A stretch of DNA of 64,000 bases from an uncultured Erysipelotrichaceae bacterium (GTDB lineage Bacteria; Bacillota_I; Bacilli_A; RF39; UBA660): NCBI GenBank assembly GCA_902795215.1, contig CADBKG010000002.1, positions 2,318 to 66,317 of the forward strand, given 5' to 3'. Below are positions 6,755-15,993 of the stretch, piece by piece. The position numbers were made by a program, and so were the translations under genes. The notes under the pieces were generated by a model. That model was not told the DNA's origin. It was given only the letters and a program-made list of their open reading frames with translations, and made no database searches. How positions within the stretch are numbered: the first letter of the stretch is position 1; every line of letters starts with the position of its first letter.

Positions 6755-6820
6755 GAATATCCCTCCTTCAAAACTGCAACAGTATTATATTATAAAGAAT
6801 AAGCAAAAGTCAAGGCCAAG

Positions 6821-6986
6821 TTATCAACAAATTTTTGAACATTTAATCAACACCATGTTCATAAGTTTTCAACACTGTGTATTTTGCAAATTTGTTGAAA
6901 CTGTTGAAAAGTTTTAAAGGTTAAGGTAGAATAGGGCTTAAAGCGAAATAGTTATCAACATTTCTTGTTTATAACTATGTTGAAAA
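6821..6986. promoter_or_regulatory. oriC, left DnaA-box cluster (variant boxes TTWTCAACA)
   Basis: exact TTWTCAACA at 6821(+), 6866(+), 6902(-), 6952(+), 6978(-); one-mismatch copies at 6844, 6856, 6893, 6966; lies between rpmH and dnaA. Confidence 0.88.
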
Positions 6987-7057
6987 AAATTTTTTTAAAA
7001 TTTAGTCTTTATCTTTTGTTACATTTAAGTTAAAATATTTATACATGGAGTGGGGTG

Positions 7058-8470
7058 ATGGATTTGAATGAAGAAAACACTATCATTTGGGAAAACTTTA
7101 TAAATTTGCTAAAATCAAAAATAGCAATGGTATCCGTCAACTCATGGTTCAAGAATTGTAAAATCTATAAAATAGAAGACTCTAGTGAAAACAATAAACC
7201 TATAAAGATTATTACAATTGAATCAAGCTCAAACTTTATAAGAAATGAAATAAAAAAACGTTATACTGATACTATAGAAGAATTAATGGAAAGTATTCTT
7301 GGGAAGCCTTGTAATATTAAATTTATCATACCTGAGGAAAAAGAAAATACTAATAATACTGAAGTTAAAAATCTAACTACTGAAACGGTAATTCCTGTGG
7401 AAAAGAGTAGTACTTATGAACAAAATTATAGTTTTAGTAGTAATCTGCTTAGTAAGTATTCTTTTGATAACTTTGTAATAGGGGACTCAAATAGACTTGC
7501 CTGTAGTGCATCTAAGTCTGTTTCAGAACAACCTGGTAAGCTTTATAATCCTTTCTTTATTCACGGAAAGAGTGGACTAGGGAAGACTCATTTAATGCAT
7601 GCTATCGGTAATTATATAGAAAATACTAGCAATTTAAAGGTTTTATATGTGACATCAGAACAGTTTATAACGGACTTTACTTCAATAAATATGAAAAAAG
7701 ATGCTGATTATACGGAAGCATTTAAAGCTAAATATAGAAATATAGACGTTCTAATGATCGACGATATACAATTTTTAGGTAATGCTGAGAAAACACAACA
7801 AGAATTCTTTCATACATTTAATAATCTATATGATATGAATAAACAAATAATTATTAGTTCAGATAGAAGTCCAGATGATTTAAAACTATTAGAAGAAAGG
7901 CTTAGAACTAGATTTAGTTGGGGATTAACTGTTAATATATATCCTCCAGATATTGAACTAAAAAAGCGTATTATAAAAAATAAAATGTCGGGACATGCTG
8001 TTGCAAAGCTTGTAGATGAAGAAGTAATTGACTATATAGCAAGTAATAGTGAAAACGATGTAAGACATATAGAAGGGGCCGTTACTAGACTTTATGCTTA
8101 TGCTGCTATAATGGGGCCACATAAAATAGATCTCCAATTTGCAAACGAAGCATTAAAAGACTATATTAAAAACTCTATATATATGGATAGTAATATATCA
8201 AAAATTCAAAAAGCTGTCGCTGATTACTATAAAATAACAGTAGAGGACTTAAAAAGTAAGAAAAGAAGTGCTAATATCAATTATCCAAGACAGGTTGCAA
8301 TATACTTATGCAGGAATTATACAGACGAATCTTTTCCTAAAATAGGACTGGAATTTGGAAACCGCAATCACTCGACAATAATACATGCCTGTGATAAAAT
8401 TAAGGAGGATTTAAAAGAAAATCAAACTTTAAGAGAAATAATTAAACAAATAAAAAATAATATAAGTTGA
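7058..8470 (+). CDS. dnaA: chromosomal replication initiator DnaA
   Basis: YNPFFIHGKSGLGKTHL Walker A, LMIDDIQF, domain IV helix-turn-helix. Confidence 0.98.
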   Translation: MDLNEENTIIWENFINLLKSKIAMVSVNSWFKNCKIYKIEDSSENNKPIKIITIESSSNFIRNEIKKRYTDTIEELMESILGKPCNIKFIIPEEKENTNNTEVKNLTTETVIPVEKSSTYEQNYSFSSNLLSKYSFDNFVIGDSNRLACSASKSVSEQPGKLYNPFFIHGKSGLGKTHLMHAIGNYIENTSNLKVLYVTSEQFITDFTSINMKKDADYTEAFKAKYRNIDVLMIDDIQFLGNAEKTQQEFFHTFNNLYDMNKQIIISSDRSPDDLKLLEERLRTRFSWGLTVNIYPPDIELKKRIIKNKMSGHAVAKLVDEEVIDYIASNSENDVRHIEGAVTRLYAYAAIMGPHKIDLQFANEALKDYIKNSIYMDSNISKIQKAVADYYKITVEDLKSKKRSANINYPRQVAIYLCRNYTDESFPKIGLEFGNRNHSTIIHACDKIKEDLKENQTLREIIKQIKNNIS

Positions 8471-8590
8471 AAACTTGTTAAAACAATATTAGTTTTCAAC
8501 AATTTATAAACAAGCAAAAATCAAGGTATAACCTAATAAATCGACACTTTTCAACAATATAAACAACACTTATTAATATTATTATATATA
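8465..8590. promoter_or_regulatory. oriC, right cluster with putative unwinding element (DnaA boxes plus DnaA-trio-like run)
   Basis: TTTTCAACA at 8493 and 8548, TTATAAACA at 8504, ATATAAACA at 8557, then TTA TTA ATA TTA TTA (8570-8584) and an AT-only tract; dnaA-dnaN spacer as in Bacillus oriC. Confidence 0.8.
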
Positions 8591-8612: not shown

Positions 8613-9731
8613 ATGAAATTTACGATTGAAAGAAATATTTTACTAGAAAATTTAAATAATGTTATTAAAGCTATTTCTATTAGAAATGTAATACCTATAT
8701 TAAATGGTATTAAATTTGAACTAACTGATGAAGGACTATACTTAACAGCAAGTAATACTGATTTAACTATTAAATCCTTTATTGAAAAGAAAAAGATAAA
8801 AAAGATAGAAAGTAATGGTAGTATTGTAGTACAAAGTAAATATATAAATGAAATTATTAGAAAACTTCCAGATGATACTATAAATATAGAAGTAATAGAT
8901 GGATTAAAACTACTTATAGAATCTAAGAATAGTCAATTTAATTTAAACTGTTTAAAAGTAGAGGATTATCCACAGATAAAATTAGAATATCAAAAAGATC
9001 CTATTATAATTAAAGGTAATGTGTTTAAATCTATGATAAAACAAACAGTTTTTGCTATAAGTAATCAAGAATCTAGACCTTTATTTACAGGAATTAACTT
9101 TAAATTACAAGGCAATATACTAGAAGTTACTGCTACTGATTCATATAGACTTGCAAAAAAGACAGTTGAACTATCCGATTTTGTAAAAGAAGAAATAAAT
9201 ATAACAATACCTGGTAATAATATTAGTGAATTAGATAAAATAATAAATGATGATGAAAATGTAGAAATGCATATATTTAATAGTAAAGCGTTATTTGTAT
9301 ATAAAAATATTAATTTCCAAACAAATTTACTAAGTGGTAATTATCCAAATACTAATAACTTAATACCAGATAATTTTGCAATTATATTTAATGCAAACTA
9401 TAATGATTTATACGATGCAGTTGATAGAGCAGCATTACTTACTCAAAATAAAGACAAAAATATTGTAAAAATGGAAACAAATGGAAATAATTTAACTATT
9501 TCTAGTTATGCTTCAGAAATAGGTAGAACAGAAGAAGTAATTAGTATTAATAAAAATGAAGGAATTGATATTGGTATATCGTTTAGTTCTAAATTTATGT
9601 TAGAAGCACTTAGAACATTAAATGATGATGAAATAGTAGTACTACTTAATAGTGAAACTAAACCAATAGTTATTAAATCAAGTAAAGATGAAACATTAAT
9701 ACAACTTATTTTACCTATAAAAACATATTAG
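8613..9731 (+). CDS. dnaN: DNA polymerase III beta sliding clamp
   Basis: PILNGIKF, ESRPLFTG, ATDSYRLA, C-terminal LILPIKTY. Confidence 0.98.
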   Translation: MKFTIERNILLENLNNVIKAISIRNVIPILNGIKFELTDEGLYLTASNTDLTIKSFIEKKKIKKIESNGSIVVQSKYINEIIRKLPDDTINIEVIDGLKLLIESKNSQFNLNCLKVEDYPQIKLEYQKDPIIIKGNVFKSMIKQTVFAISNQESRPLFTGINFKLQGNILEVTATDSYRLAKKTVELSDFVKEEINITIPGNNISELDKIINDDENVEMHIFNSKALFVYKNINFQTNLLSGNYPNTNNLIPDNFAIIFNANYNDLYDAVDRAALLTQNKDKNIVKMETNGNNLTISSYASEIGRTEEVISINKNEGIDIGISFSSKFMLEALRTLNDDEIVVLLNSETKPIVIKSSKDETLIQLILPIKTY

Positions 9732-9757
9732 AGACTTTCAAAAAAGTCTTTTTTTTT
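9732..9757 (+). terminator. intrinsic terminator after dnaN
   Basis: AGACTTT-loop-AAAGTCT followed by a T-tract. Confidence 0.75.
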
Positions 9758-9784
9758 GTTCAAAAATAACAAATTTTAAACATA

Positions 9785-9814
9785 TTCGACAAATTATGAC
9801 AAATTTCGACAAAA
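9785..9814. promoter_or_regulatory. tandem Spo0A (0A) boxes upstream of comK
   Basis: three 10-bp direct repeats TTCGACAAAT/TATGACAAAT/TTCGACAAAA; TTCGACA is the reverse complement of the 0A box TGTCGAA. Confidence 0.7.
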
Positions 9815-9851
9815 TAAAAGAGTATAAGGGATGGCGAGGGGAGGTGATGGT

Positions 9852-10325
9852 ATGGAAAAATATAGAATTAGTTCAAAAACACTTGCAGTATTACCGATTT
9901 CTAAAAATAGAACAAAGGTATATGAAAACGATGATATTATTATTGTGGACCAAAATGTTCAAAAAATAATAGAAGAAAATTGTTCATATTATGGTAGTTC
10001 ATATAATTTAAGAAAAGAATATACTGAAAAACTAATAGGAGTAACACACAAATCACCAATTATTATTGAAGATGCATCAAATATTATATTTTTCCCTACA
10101 AGTAGTCCTAGATTAAGAGAATGTGGGTGGATATCACTTAATAATCTTGAATCTAATAAGCAAGTAGGGGACTTTAGTCAGATTACTTTCTTTAATAATT
10201 TAAAGGTTAATCTTAATGTTTCTAATAGGATTATTAGTAATCAAATACTTAGATCAACAAGATTAGAATCAATCGCTAGAAAAAGACAGTTAGAATTAAC
10301 AAAGAATTTGAGTAAAAACCTTTAA
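9852..10325 (+). CDS. comK: competence transcription factor ComK family protein
   Basis: IIEENCSYYGSSYNLRKE, THKSPII, IIFFPTSSPR...CGWI pattern of the ComK family; start ATG 9852 after GGAGGTGA. Confidence 0.85.
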   Translation: MEKYRISSKTLAVLPISKNRTKVYENDDIIIVDQNVQKIIEENCSYYGSSYNLRKEYTEKLIGVTHKSPIIIEDASNIIFFPTSSPRLRECGWISLNNLESNKQVGDFSQITFFNNLKVNLNVSNRIISNQILRSTRLESIARKRQLELTKNLSKNL

Positions 10326-10352
10326 TAATAGCTTATTTTGTGATATAATTAA

Positions 10353-10384
10353 TACTAGGTATAGAGGTACGACTATACCTAGTA
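10353..10384. repeat. perfect 12-bp inverted repeat just downstream of the recF promoter -10
   Basis: TACTAGGTATAG-aggtacga-CTATACCTAGTA; TG-A-TATAAT immediately upstream. Confidence 0.8.
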
Positions 10385-10415: not shown

Positions 10416-11513
10416 ATGAAAATCACAAACTTAAAATTATATAATTTTAGAAATTATGAATTTTTAAATATAGACTTTTCAAATAAACAAAATATCATAA
10501 TTGGTCCAAATGGAAGTGGTAAGACAAATATAGTTGAAGCTATATATGTTCTTGCTATGACCAAATCCTATAGGGGAACTCTTGATAAAGTTTTAATCAG
10601 AAACAATGAAAGTATTATGAGTATAGAGGGGGTAATTAAAGATAAAGTTACTCATAAATATAAAATTAATATTTCTGAAAATGGGAAAATAGTTAAAATA
10701 AATAATAATAAGATTTCTAAACTAAGTGATTATATTTCTAAAATTAACGTTGTAATGTTTACTCCTGAAGACGTTAACATAATTAAGGATTCACCAAAAT
10801 CTAGGAGAAAAATGTTAAATATAGAAATATCACAGTTAAATACTGAATATTTGCACTTACTAAATGAATATAACCAGGTTTTAAAGCAAAGAAACGCTTT
10901 TTTAAAACTAATGTATGTTAATAATTTAGCAAGTCCAGATTATTTATGGATTTTAACTGATAAACTAATTAATCTTGGTCTTAAAATTTCTAATATTAGA
11001 AGAGATTATATCAATGATATTAATAAATATTATGATGATATTAATTATAAGATAACAAGAAAAAAAGGTTTAAAAGTACTTTATGTTAGTTCTTTTAAAA
11101 ATAAAACGCAGGAAGAACTAAAAGAAAAGTATAAAGCTAGTTTAGAAAAGGACTTAGCTATTGGAAAAACTAGTTTTGGAGTGCATCATGATGATTTATT
11201 ATTTTCTCTTGAAGGAAAATCGCTTAAGGATTATGGTTCAGAGGGAGAACAAAAAAACGCCATAGTGTGCTTTAAATTAGCCGAGATTGAGATTTTTATC
11301 AAAGATAAGGGAATTTATCCAATTTTGATTTTAGACGATTTATTTAGCGAATTAGACGCCAAAAAAATCAATAATATCCTAAAGAAGGTAAATAAGAATC
11401 TCCAAATATTTATAACTACAACTGATTTAAAAAATATAAATACTAAAATATTAACTAATTGTAGTGTGTATGAATTAAAAAATAAGAAAGTGGTGAAGAG
11501 AGTATATGAATGA
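10416..11513 (+). CDS. recF: DNA replication/repair protein RecF
   Basis: [34 protein letters not shown]. Confidence 0.97.
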
Positions 11514-13440
11514 AACTAAAGTTGAAAAAGAATATACTGATAGTGATATTCAAGTGTTAGAAGGCCTTGAAGCAGTAAGAAAAAGACCAGGAATGTATAT
11601 CGGAACAACTAGTGAAAGAGGATTACATCATTTAGTTTGGGAAATTGTTGATAACTCTGTTGATGAAGCTTTAGCAGGATATTGTGATGATATTTACGTA
11701 ACTATCGAAAAAGATAATAGTATTACTGTATCAGATGATGGTAGAGGTATGCCAACAGGTAAAAACGAAAAAACTGGACTTTCTACAATAGAAACTATAT
11801 TTACTGTGCTTCATGCCGGAGGAAAATTTGGTGGAGGCGGATATAAAGTCTCTGGAGGATTACACGGAGTAGGTGCAAGTGTTGTTAATGCATTATCTAC
11901 TTGGCTTGAAGTATATGTTTATCAAAAAGGTAAAGTATATTATCAAAGATTTGAAAATGGTGGAAAACCTGTAAGTGAATTAAAGATAGTAGGGGACTGT
12001 GAAGAAAATAGAACAGGTACAACTGTTAAATTTAAACCAGATCCTGAAATCTTTACTGAAACTACAGAATATAAATATGATATTTTATATCAAAGATTAC
12101 AAGAAATCTGTTTTTTGAATAAAGGGCTTAGAATAGTTTTAACTGATGCTAGGGTAGATGGAGAAACAAAAACAGATGAATTCTTGTATGAAGGTGGTAT
12201 TATTGAATATGTTAAGATGCTTAACGAAAATAAAACACCAATTCATGATGATATTTGCTATTTTGAGGGACAAGAAGATGGTATTTCTATAGAAGTAGCA
12301 ATGCAATATAATACAACATTTAGTCCATCAATTTATTCATTTACAAATAATATTAATACTCATGAAGGTGGAACTCATGAAGATGGAGTTAAAAGAGCAT
12401 TAACAAGAGTAATTAACAATTATGCTAGAAATAAAAATATATTAAAAGAAAAAGATTCAGCATTATCAGGTGATGATGTAAGAGAAGGTTTATCAATGAT
12501 AATTTCTTGTAAGCATCCTAATCCTCAGTTTGAAGGACAAACAAAGACTAAACTTGGAAATGCAGAAGTAAGAAAAATAGCAGATAATATTTTTGCAGAA
12601 GGATTTGAAAGATATTTAATGGAAAATCCAAGTGATGCTAGAATAATTGTTGAAAAAGCAATGACAGCTTCACATGCAAGACTTGCAGCAAAAAAAGCAA
12701 GAGAAAGTGTTATTAAGCATAGCGAGAATGAAATTGCAGCTTTTGGTGGTAAATTAAATGATTGTAAGTCAAAAGATCCAAAAGAAAGAGAAATCTTCAT
12801 AGTCGAGGGTGACTCTGCCGGAGGAAGTGCCGTTAAGGGAAGAAATAGTATGACTCAAGCAATATTGCCACTTAGAGGAAAAATACTTAATGTAGAAAAA
12901 GCAAGACTTGATAAAGCATTATCAAATGATGAAATAAAATCTATTATTACTGCTTTTGGAACAAGTATTGGAGAAACATTTGATTTAAGTAAGTTAAGAT
13001 ACGATAAAATTATAATCATGACCGATGCCGATGTAGATGGTGACCACATTAGAGTACTACTTTTAACATTGTTCTATAGATTCTTTAGACCAATCGTTGA
13101 AGCAGGGCATGTTTATGCTGCACAACCGCCATTATTTTGTATAAAACACGGTCAAAAGATTAAATACGTATTAGACGAAGAAGAAAGAGATAAATATTTA
13201 TCTTCACTTGACCCAAAAACAAAAATTGTAGTAACTCGTATGAAAGGTCTTGGCGAAATGGATGCTGAGGAATTAAACGAAACTACAATGGATATAAATA
13301 CAAGAGTATTAAGGAAAATAACGGTAGAAGACTTACAAGAAGCGGATTCTACATTTAATATGTTAATGGGAGAAGAAGTTGCACCTAGAAGAGAGTTTAT
13401 CGAAACAAACGCTCAATATGTAACTGATCTTGATATATAG
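11506..13440 (+). CDS. gyrB: DNA gyrase subunit B
   Basis: [33 protein letters not shown]. Confidence 0.98.
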
Positions 13441-13449
13441 GAGGTTTAT

Positions 13450-15993
13450 ATGGATATCGAAGAAGAAAACAATTTAGAAGAAAACGAATCATTTGATGAA
13501 GCAGCAGATAGAAAACAAGAAAATAACATAGTTAATGAAATAAGCAAATCCTTTTTAAGATATTCAATGAGTGTTATAACTTCTAGAGCTATTCCTGATT
13601 TAAGAGATGGTTTAAAACCTGTTCAAAGAAGAATACTTTTCGACATGTATAAGGAAGGTATAACTCCTGATAAACAACATAAAAAATCCGCAACAACTGT
13701 TGGGTCTGTTATGGGTCTTTACCATCCGCATGGGGATTCATCAATATATGAAGCTATGGTACGTATGGCACAAGATTTTAATTATCGTTATATGCTTATA
13801 GATGGCCATGGTAACTTTGGTAACGTTGAATCTTCAAGACCAGCAGCAATGCGTTATACAGAATCAAGATTATCTAAAATTTCTCTTGAAATGTTAAGAG
13901 ATTTGAACAAAGATACTGTTGATATGATGCCTAACTATTCTGAAGATAAAATGGAACCAGTTACGCTTCCATCTAGATTTCCAAACATTTTAGTTAATGG
14001 AACTATGGGTATCGCAGTAGGTATGGCTACAAATATTCCGCCACATAACTTAACAGAAGTAATTAATGGATGTATTGCTTATATTGACAATCCTGAAATA
14101 GATACTGCAGGACTAATGGAATACGTAAAAGGTCCAGATTTCCCTTTAGGTGGTATAATTTTAGGTAATAAAGGCATAAAAGATGCTTATGAAACTGGAA
14201 GAGGCAGTCTTACAATACGAAGTAATGCTGTTATAGAAGAAAAGGGCGGTAGAAACTATATAGTAGTTGATCAAATCCCTTATGGAGTTAATACTTCTGA
14301 ATTAAAACAAAAAGTAGCAGATTTAGTTAAGAACAAAATAATAGAAGGTATTGCGGATTATCATACAGATTTAAAACATGGAGTTAAAATAACAATTACA
14401 CTTAAAAAAGATGCTAATCCTCAAGTTGTATTAAATCAATTATATAAACATACGGATTTTCAAACAAAATTTGGTATTATATTTTTAATGCTTGATAATG
14501 GAGTTCCTAGAACTCTAGGTTTAAGGGATATTATTGAAAAATATATAATGTACCAAAAGGAAGTAATTGTAAGAAGAACAAAATACGATTTAAAAGTTGC
14601 AGAAGATAGAGTTCATATATTAAAGGGCCTATTAATCGCTGTTGATAACATTGATGAAGTTGTTAAAATCATTAGAGGCGCAGAAACTAGTGAAGAAGCA
14701 CTTGAAAAACTAACTAAACGCTTTGGATTAGATGAAATTCAAGGAAATGCAATTCTAGAAATGCGTTTAAGAAAATTAACAGGCTTAGAAAGAGAAAAGA
14801 TTGAAAAAGAGACTGAAGAACTACTAAAATTAATTGAAGAATTAAAAGCAATTTTAGCTAGTGATGAAAAAATATATGAAGTTATTAAGAATGAATTAAT
14901 TGAAATTAGAGATAAATATGGTGATGAAAGACGTACTCATATCGATATGACTGCTATTGATTATATCGAAGATGAATCTTTAATTCCAGATGAAAATAGT
15001 ATCATTACATTAACAGAAAAAGGATATATTAAACGTTTATCTGTAGATACTTATAAAGTTCAAAACCGTGGAGGTAAGGGAATTAAAGGAATGAGTACTA
15101 ATGAAGAAGATAATGTTAAAATTATGCTTAATATAATGACTCATGACGATATATTATTCTTTACTAATAAAGGAAAAGTATACAGAATTAAAGGATATGA
15201 AATACCTGAGTTTAGTAGACAAGCGAAAGGATTACCTATTATTAATCTTCTAAATATTGAAAAAGATGAACAAGTAAGTTCACTAATAAAGATAACTAAG
15301 GATGAAATTGAAGATGTAAAATATTTATTCTTTGCTACTAAAGACGGTGTAGTTAAGAGGACAAGTCTAGAAGAGTTTAAAAACATTAGACAAACAGGTA
15401 AAATAACAATTACATTGAAAGAAAATGATGAATTAATCGCAGTTAGAAAAACAACAGGCCAAAACAAGATATTACTCGGATCTACAAATGGACATGCTGT
15501 ATTATTTGATGAAAATGAAGTTAGAGTAATGGGAAGAACTGCATCTGGTGTAAGAGGAATTAATATGCCTGATGGCAAATGTATTTGTTGTGAAGTATGT
15601 ACTTTAGATTCTAATTTACTTATTGTTAGTGAAAAAGGGTATGGTAAGCGTACTTTTGTTAAAGAGTTTAGAGAAACTAAACGTGGAAGCAAAGGAGTTA
15701 AAGCTATTAATATAACAGAAAAGAATGGTAAGATTGCTGCAATTAATCTAGTAAGTGATGAAAATGATGCAATTATTATTACTGATTCTGGCATGGTTAT
15801 AAGAATTGGTGTTGAAACTGTATCTCAATTAAGTAGAAATACTCAAGGAGTAAGACTTATTAATCTTAAAGATGAACAATTAGTAACTTCAGTAAGTATT
15901 GTTGATAAATCTGAAGAGGATGAAGAAACTGACGAAGAAAGCAAAGAAACAGCTGAAGAAACTAATAGTGAACAAAAAAACGAAGAGAATTAA
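13450..15993 (+). CDS. gyrA: DNA gyrase subunit A
   Basis: [26 protein letters not shown], GyrA box QNRGGKG, acidic tail. Confidence 0.98.

Follow-up and report, generated by a model that had tools for sequence, protein, structure and literature searches.

A comK gene behind three phased Spo0A-type boxes in the dnaN–recF slot of uncultured small-genome gut Bacilli

In Bacillus subtilis the gene for the competence regulator ComK lies far from oriC, and Spo0A~P binds directly to its promoter. Five imperfect Spo0A boxes (0A boxes) are found there, A1–A3 upstream and R1–R2 across the core promoter, interspersed with ComK boxes and sites for Rok, CodY, AbrB and DegU (Mirouze et al. 2012, PMC3297582). 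The B. subtilis K-box regulon comprises comG, comE, comF, comC, dprA, ssbB and recA. A competence regulator within a few kb of oriC is known from Streptococcus pneumoniae, namely comCDE, a two-component system with a peptide and an autocatalytic loop, which is induced through gene dosage under replication stress (PMC8394987). Here we describe a comK gene (9852–10325) found in a stretch of 64,000 nucleotides (hereafter the window; positions 2,318 to 66,317 of contig CADBKG010000002.1) from an uncultured Erysipelotrichaceae bacterium of the RF39 lineage. It lies between dnaN and recF, behind three phased boxes of the 0A type.

The locus shares with that of B. subtilis (PMC3297582) a ComK regulator with several Spo0A boxes, and a Spo0A with boxes at its own promoter. 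Unlike the B. subtilis promoter, that of the window has three phased near-perfect boxes in a fixed register, a TATAAG −10 without a −35, no K-box and no room for other upstream sites, and its gene stands between dnaN and recF. The two systems also have in common a full-length ComK domain, ComEA, ComEC, a pilus ATPase, a platform protein, a prepilin peptidase, a pilin and RecA, which the genome encodes. Here, however, there are no conserved AAAA-N5-TTTT dyads at comEA, the order is without DprA and ComFC, and the pilus genes, in contrast to the comG operon, are scattered over three contigs (C5, C6 and C15). With comCDE the likeness is one of position alone: the regulator belongs to another family and no feedback sites are visible. 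The dnaA-dnaN-yaaA-recF-gyrB-gyrA cluster that is canonical in Bacilli is the same, in the same orientation, and likewise has one small gene between dnaN and recF, but the family to which the window belongs is without the small S4-domain gene yaaA and has in its stead comK with a promoter of its own.

To our knowledge, nearly all work on ComK regulation concerns Bacillus, Listeria and Staphylococcus. ComK, 0A boxes and, in B. subtilis, the link from Spo0A to comK are already known; new are the fixed three-box promoter, the replacement of yaaA, the position in the origin cluster and an inventory without DprA and ComF. In the full-text literature we found no description of comK in the dnaN–recF slot or of ComK in these lineages, and a sporulation survey of these orders makes no mention of ComK or competence (PMC10868615). 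The version of ComK found in this very common uncultured gut and rumen group is stripped-down and strongly conserved, with one promoter module and one plausible input. It yields a concrete hypothesis on how and why these bacteria take up DNA, which bears on gene flow in the gut microbiome, and it suggests that the Spo0A–ComK link is older than the Bacillus lineage. The rigid spacing of the promoter (11, 21 and 31 nt, see below) could moreover serve in searching for Spo0A targets in metagenome-assembled genomes.

The comK gene and its promoter

The open reading frame (ORF; ATG at 9852, forward strand, 157 amino acids) matches Pfam PF06338 [ComK] over model positions 1–150 of 152 (E 1e-36; 126.4 bits, with a cut-off of 22.3). 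The original prediction, which had been made from the sequence and had proposed a hidden Markov model (HMM) check, was thus correct in its assignment to the ComK family, in its coordinates and in its description. No NCBIfam model matched the product. The match is the only one to ComK in the whole genome from which the window comes (G000; 1.34 Mb, 37 contigs, 93% complete, 27% G+C). When 20 orthologues are aligned, 27 columns are invariant, a further 21 are nearly so, and there are no stops, identity within the genus being 50–62%; such conservation is that of a gene under purifying selection. Since the orthologues are intact and in the same slot, and since 27 residues are invariant among the 20, a chance ORF can be ruled out, and to judge from the alignment 9852–10325 is a genuine and functional gene for a ComK-family transcription factor. 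The ComK of B. subtilis is 192 amino acids long, and the difference from the 157 found here would be a missing C-terminal extension.

Upstream of comK are three direct 7-mers with a 10-bp period (9785–9811, forward strand): TTCGACA (9785–9791), TATGACA (9795–9801) and TTCGACA (9805–9811). Read on the other strand, TTCGACA is TGTCGAA, the 0A box, of which tandem copies 3 bp apart make up a Spo0A site (PMC2731898). The comK boxes, 7 bp long and 3 bp apart, have just this known binding geometry. The 7-mer is rare in the genome, with 36 copies where about 115 would be expected. Related loci carry two to four copies of TTCGACAAAn 5' of comK, and in these the box hexamers end, with almost no exceptions, exactly 11, 21 and 31 nt before the −10.

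The promoter region as a whole occupies 9785–9828. Its −10, TATAAG (9823–9828), lies 11 nt past the proximal box and is without a −35 element. Of the 38 relatives whose proximal box is in register, 29 have TATAAG as the −10 and 5 have TATAAA, half (19/38) have a TG extension, and the hexamer at −35 spacing has only 0–2 of 6 matches to TTGACA in all but one (37/38). With a TATAAG −10 and no −35, the core promoter should be weak by itself. A ribosome-binding site, GGAGGTGA (9840–9847), precedes the ATG by 4 nt; in the relatives it reads GGAGGTGA or GGGGGTGA.

The window's own genome was scanned for three-unit arrays with a position-weight matrix built from the boxes of the relatives. The comK array scored highest, at 36.0 bits, and the second-best (19.7 bits) was found at spo0A, about 100 nt 5' of a gene for a protein of 252 amino acids on another contig (G000:C10:33767–34525, minus strand). 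This gene is identified as spo0A by its Response_reg and Spo0A_C domains (E 6e-42), and the recognition helix of its product reads SRVERAIRHAIEVSW. Spo0A_C is present in 24 of 25 genomes of the family, and TTCGACA is conserved 5' of spo0A within the genus. A strict search for TCGACA arrays (at least three boxes, at most one mismatch each) returned nothing, comK included, because the middle box there, TATGACA, is degenerate.

From a promoter with three phased Spo0A boxes we infer that comK is probably wired to the sporulation master switch Spo0A rather than simply to origin copy number.

The signals on either side of comK indicate an insulated, monocistronic transcription unit: the gene has the dnaN terminator 5', its own promoter, and a hairpin with a U-tract 3'. 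The dnaN intrinsic terminator (9732–9757, forward strand) is an AT-rich hairpin with a 7-bp stem (AGACTTT/AAAGTCT), a 4-nt loop and T8; a consensus terminator scanner missed it because the stem has fewer than three G-C pairs. A hairpin and T-run follow dnaN in nearly all related loci, and the first 0A box begins only about 25 nt past the terminator. Beyond comK, a promoter scan found the extended −10 of the recF-gyrB-gyrA promoter, TGATATAAT (10341–10349, with TG before the second hexamer), which relatives keep as TGnTATAAT. The predicted layout, comK with an upstream regulatory region of its own between the dnaN terminator and the recF promoter, agrees with these signals.

A terminator scan identified the downstream hairpin (10353–10384), a perfect 12-bp stem followed by AATTTATTTT, which folds with −25.9 kcal/mol (z −4.5), has a U-rich tail and begins 3 nt past the recF −10 TGATATAAT. 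Across the genus and, with variants, across the family, the hairpin keeps both its sequence, ACTAGGTA...TACCTAGT, and its spacing to the −10. It could be the terminator of comK, a stabilising stem at the 5' end of the recF mRNA, or a palindromic operator; probably it is at once comK terminator and 5' leader stem of recF.

In four metatranscriptome runs from bovine gut there are contigs near-identical to the window that cover comK 2–5x, and in three of these four runs recF is mostly uncovered. This lends weak support to expression of comK in vivo. The contigs are too shallow for the start or the termination point of comK transcription to be mapped.

Retention of spo0A and of many sporulation genes is reported for the uncultured orders RF39, RFN20 (some families) and ML615J-28 (PMC10868615). 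In the present genome the flanks of spo0A (G000:C10:28724–35818) hold a spoVAC/AEB-like gene, spoVAD, and genes for a group-3 sigma factor, a DUF378 protein and a CtpB-like S41 protease; a SpoVS-like gene is located at C5:29172–29432. Given spo0A, the spoVA-type genes, the sigma factor, the CtpB-like protease and the SpoVS-like gene, this 1.3-Mb genome keeps at least part of a sporulation programme. Members of the same genus (L108–L117) also conserve, upstream of spo0A, the perfect palindrome CCTTGTCGA-N-TTCGACAAGG, behind which come weaker phased boxes. The palindrome either carries two inverted 0A boxes or is the terminator of the gene upstream.

Conservation of the position and loss of yaaA

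Species-representative genomes were scanned with the ComK alignment, which gave 496 ComK-encoding stretches, and the best 80 loci were examined. The figures for adjacency of comK and dnaN rest on these best 80 species loci and on the loci of 22 relatives. As far as the contigs reach, the order dnaA-dnaN-comK-recF-gyrB is found in 71 of the 80, with DnaN identities down to 48%, so that comK occupies the dnaN–recF slot in more than 70 uncultured small-genome gut species. In the relatives, searched by tblastn with the proteins of the window, DnaN and/or RecF flank comK in 19 of 21 loci; these 19 include every genome of the same genus that was fetched and three sister genera. The survey of related genomes that had been proposed with the original prediction therefore finds the slot kept.

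The source records are uncultured gut and rumen metagenome-assembled genomes labelled Bacilli, Tenericutes, Mollicutes or Erysipelotrichaceae, and the sequence of the window itself was found in gut metagenomes of bovine, goat and sheep origin. Many of the Bacilli genomes have been deposited as 'uncultured Muribaculaceae bacterium' (Bacteroidota), a label which, given their dnaA-dnaN-comK-recF-gyrB content, is evidently wrong.

It had been stated at the outset that the slot usually holds yaaA, and this is right: yaaA [TIGR02988] is present in 13 of 15 other Bacilli families sampled, and dnaN-yaaA-recF can be read directly in three of them (L140, L142 and L145). None of the 25 genomes of the window's own family has a TIGR02988 match. 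In this clade yaaA is gone and comK is in its place. Two genomes have neither arrangement, the slot being empty (233 nt) in G030 and dnaN being followed by mnmG in G024. The sister family, of which one genome was sampled (G025), has dnaN-comK on one contig. Altogether dnaN is matched three times in G025 (contigs C28, C31 and C17), and another contig reads recF-yaaA-dnaN-dnaA with an in-frame TGA in dnaN; because of that TGA the contig is probably a code-4 contaminant, which makes its yaaA call doubtful.

In the ComK tree the nine loci with comK elsewhere nest inside the slot loci, as a clade of eight and one singleton, so that at least two changes of position are required. With midpoint rooting the dnaN–recF slot looks ancestral, two lineages having later moved comK off the origin. 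The relocated copies adjoin ligA, with pcrA and gatCAB nearby (L050, L055, L060, L063, L094 and L102), and most of them keep phased 0A boxes and a −10 of the TAnAAT type. Most likely comK came into the slot in an ancestor shared by an order-level clade of uncultured small-genome gut Bacilli, a clade that is probably spore-forming.

DNA-uptake genes and the weighing of explanations

The late competence genes, which the original prediction had suggested looking for, are present in part (coordinates are contig:position in G000). ComEA (C19:7802–8476; SLBB and HHH_3) is encoded directly 5' of a full-length ComEC (C19:8743–10725; DUF4131, Competence and Lactamase_B). The pilus set consists of a PilB-type ATPase (C5:27009–28340; T2SSE, 421 bits), PilC (C15:17489–18946; two T2SSF domains) in one operon with the prepilin peptidase PilD (Peptidase_A24 match C15:16852–17181, in the ORF C15:16723–17517), and one N_methyl pilin (C6:2782–3198).

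HMM searches for DprA and ComFC covered 41 genomes, 26 of the order and 15 from other families. DprA [PF02481] was found in none of the 26 and was over the cut-off in 8 of the 15. ComFC [TIGR00201] was likewise absent from the 26 at E <= 1e-5, no separate search for ComFA being made, and was found in other families of the class. Motif searches of the proteome for DprA, and a search for the phosphoribosyltransferase motif of ComFC, returned nothing. By this inventory, which is only half canonical, the predicted uptake machine has kept its membrane-crossing part but not the part dedicated to processing in the cytoplasm. Late competence genes are thus present with ComEA, ComEC, the PilB-type ATPase, PilC, PilD and the pilin; a canonical transformation programme is not implied, because none of the 26 genomes of the order has DprA or ComFC. 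The inventory fits uptake of DNA for nutrition or for RecFOR-dependent repair at least as well as it fits classical transformation.

A second pilus system, beside the PilB/PilC/PilD set, is a Tad-like operon (G000:C1:1097–12847, minus strand) with a CpaF/TadA-type ATPase (partial T2SSE), two polytopic membrane proteins, a small Flp/pseudopilin-like protein and large secreted proteins. Between comEA and comEC there is a DUF1016_N fragment (G000:C19:8484–8729), and the two ORFs after comEC (296 and 302 amino acids; region 10739–12696) may be of the DUF1016 type, by similar N-termini alone. In one relative (G006) pilC-pilD follows comEC on the same contig.

We consider it likely that these observations belong together, in that a Spo0A-driven, insulated comK in the dnaN–recF slot controls a DNA-uptake apparatus without DprA and ComF. 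Phosphorylated Spo0A would bind the three-box array (9785–9811) and would switch comK, probably on, at starvation or at the start of sporulation. ComK would in turn control ComEA, ComEC and the type IV pilus (PilB, PilC, PilD and pilin), and since DprA and ComF are lacking, the apparatus may serve DNA scavenging or repair and not classical transformation. As to the sign of the Spo0A effect, we lean towards activation: with no −35, and with a non-consensus G at the last position of the −10, the comK promoter can be argued to need an activator. In B. subtilis the spoIIG and spoIIE promoters are Spo0A-activated, sigma-A-dependent promoters in which tandem 0A boxes overlap the −35 region, as they do at comK; here, unlike there, we see a third box between −30 and −25, and the 11/21/31 spacing is rigid. 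The middle comK box is 21 nt from the −10, near the unusual 22-nt spacing in spoIIG. Repression by Spo0A is a possibility of some weight, if a lesser one.

Several findings tell against a Spo0A-driven comK that controls DNA uptake. The link to Spo0A is drawn from motif identity, geometry and co-occurrence, and of the three boxes in this genome the middle one is degenerate (TATGACA). The comK boxes cover about −55 to −25, and in PcomK of B. subtilis a 0A box that overlaps the −35 is repressive (PMC3297582). The metatranscriptome is contig-based and of low depth (2–5x), DNA carry-over may contribute to it, and one of its contigs runs across the dnaN terminator. On the side of the regulon, DprA and ComFC are missing, and the comEA promoter, which is conserved in the genus (GAGAAAAAT, about 11 nt, CGGAATAAT; G000:C19:7540–7801 and loci L121–L137), looks to be of the sigma-H type. 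K-box dyads, that is, two AAAA-N5-TTTT motifs spaced 8, 18 or 31 bp, were searched genome-wide, and the only perfect one lies 5' of comEA, where it overlaps a terminator hairpin; none of canonical spacing was found in 17 orthologous comEA upstream regions. Because of the terminator overlap, and because it is not conserved in the 17 relatives, this dyad was rejected as evidence for a ComK regulon.

Other dyad spacings have 0–4 matches each in the genome. The motif AAAA-N5-TTTT is absent from 9758–9851, 5' of comK, where the short distance between the dnaN terminator and the 0A boxes leaves no room for a K-box, so that positive autoregulation of the B. subtilis type is not visible at this promoter. 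The K-boxes that the original prediction proposed to look for were accordingly not borne out, there being no conserved ones 5' of comEA and none 5' of comK. In several relatives (L121, L123 and L133) TGTCGAA/TTCGACA boxes occur 5' of comEA. The pilin and pilC promoters look plain sigma-A.

In the original prediction the place of comK near the origin tied the copy number of the gene to replication initiation, as for competence genes in pneumococcus. On this reading the position would be selected because it couples copy number to replication initiation or stress, as for comCDE, with competence as the outcome. It is true that comK begins about 1.3 kb from the DnaA-box cluster of the dnaA–dnaN spacer, that 71 of 80 species loci keep it in its place despite deep divergence, and that dosage control of an origin-proximal comCDE is documented in S. 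pneumoniae (PMC8394987). But the dnaA–gyrA cluster is extremely syntenic anyway, and in the most syntenic cluster of bacterial chromosomes a conserved position is expected without dosage selection. Furthermore, two lineages appear (midpoint root) to have moved comK beside ligA/pcrA, mostly keeping the 0A-box promoter, the pneumococcal sensitivity depends on an autocatalytic loop while no K-box lies 5' of comK, and comK seems to take its main input from Spo0A, a regulator active once growth has stopped. We regard dosage selection as improbable. There is about an even chance that the position is instead a frozen accident, a single replacement of yaaA by comK locked by the synteny of the cluster, in which the location is meaningless and ComK still Spo0A-controlled. 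The gene has one slot, one orientation and the same flanking signals across the clade; the slot of G030 is empty and that of G024 altered, which implies that its content is dispensable; and the relocated copies mostly keep the 0A-box promoter. It would be odd on this account that both positions, dnaN/recF and pcrA/ligA, are among replication and repair genes, though both are also highly conserved clusters. Such probability as these two explanations leave falls to some other link of comK with the neighbouring replication and repair genes.

Two further explanations concern what acts on comK, and what ComK acts on. Were the repeats variant DnaA boxes, DnaA and not Spo0A would regulate comK and couple it to the initiator. 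TTTTCGACA is indeed one position off the oriC box TTWTCAACA, the dnaA–dnaN spacer has one AAATCGACA at a distance of 1 nt from a TTTTCAACA box, and a few relatives have TCAACA in the comK array. However, all the other oriC boxes here are TCAACA, while the variable position in the comK arrays is G in 83% and A in only 9% (144 boxes), and this difference led us mostly to reject the DnaA reading; TTCGACA is moreover an exact 0A box, and the second-best array is at spo0A itself and conserved there. We think it very unlikely that DnaA is the regulator. The other explanation, doubtful in our opinion yet worth keeping in mind, is that ComK is not mainly a competence switch but a Spo0A-dependent regulator of some other stationary-phase programme, with K-state-like growth arrest as in B. 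subtilis, DNA repair or entry into sporulation as candidates, and with ComEA/ComEC and the pilus controlled separately. The order-wide absence of DprA and ComFC would fit, as would the lack of conserved K-boxes at comEA, its sigma-H-like promoter with 0A boxes of its own in some relatives, the plain sigma-A-like promoters of pilin and pilC, and the shortness of ComK (157 amino acids, against 192 in B. subtilis). Yet ComK-family proteins control DNA-uptake genes in every studied case, and ComEA/ComEC and a complete pilus set have been retained in genomes of about 1 Mb that lost much else; the absence of K-boxes is weak evidence, since these are of the B. subtilis type and the ComK here is divergent. 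Control of DNA uptake by a Spo0A-driven ComK may be carried further, into a scheme that we put forward as speculative and, in all its parts together, unlikely: the Bacillus competence network would have collapsed to two steps, in which Spo0A~P directly fires a tail-less ComK from its dedicated three-box promoter and this turns on a DprA/ComF-less apparatus, so that when starvation or sporulation sets in, DNA is taken up as a source of nucleotides or as a template for repair rather than for classical transformation, the oriC–recF (or pcrA–ligA) placement coupling the output to the state of replication and repair.

Neighbouring genes and origin signals

All the genes of the cluster that follow are on the forward strand. 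The upstream neighbour of comK is dnaN (8613–9731; sliding clamp, 372 amino acids), whose orthologues are 75–81% identical within the genus and are always directly 5' of comK. Downstream are recF (10416–11513), gyrB (11506–13440) and gyrA (13450–15993).

The oriC context (6800–8560) has DnaA-box clusters of the TTWTCAACA type 5' of dnaA (about 6820–6985) and in the dnaA–dnaN spacer (about 8465–8560). The sole oriC box that is not of the TCAACA type is AAATCGACA at 8539–8547. This 0A-box-like sequence is 1 nt from the DnaA box TTTTCAACA (together 8539–8558), which gives a 10-bp period like that of the comK array. In B. subtilis oriC is known to contain a Spo0A site, and by its resemblance to a 0A box AAATCGACA at 8539–8547 may be one as well.

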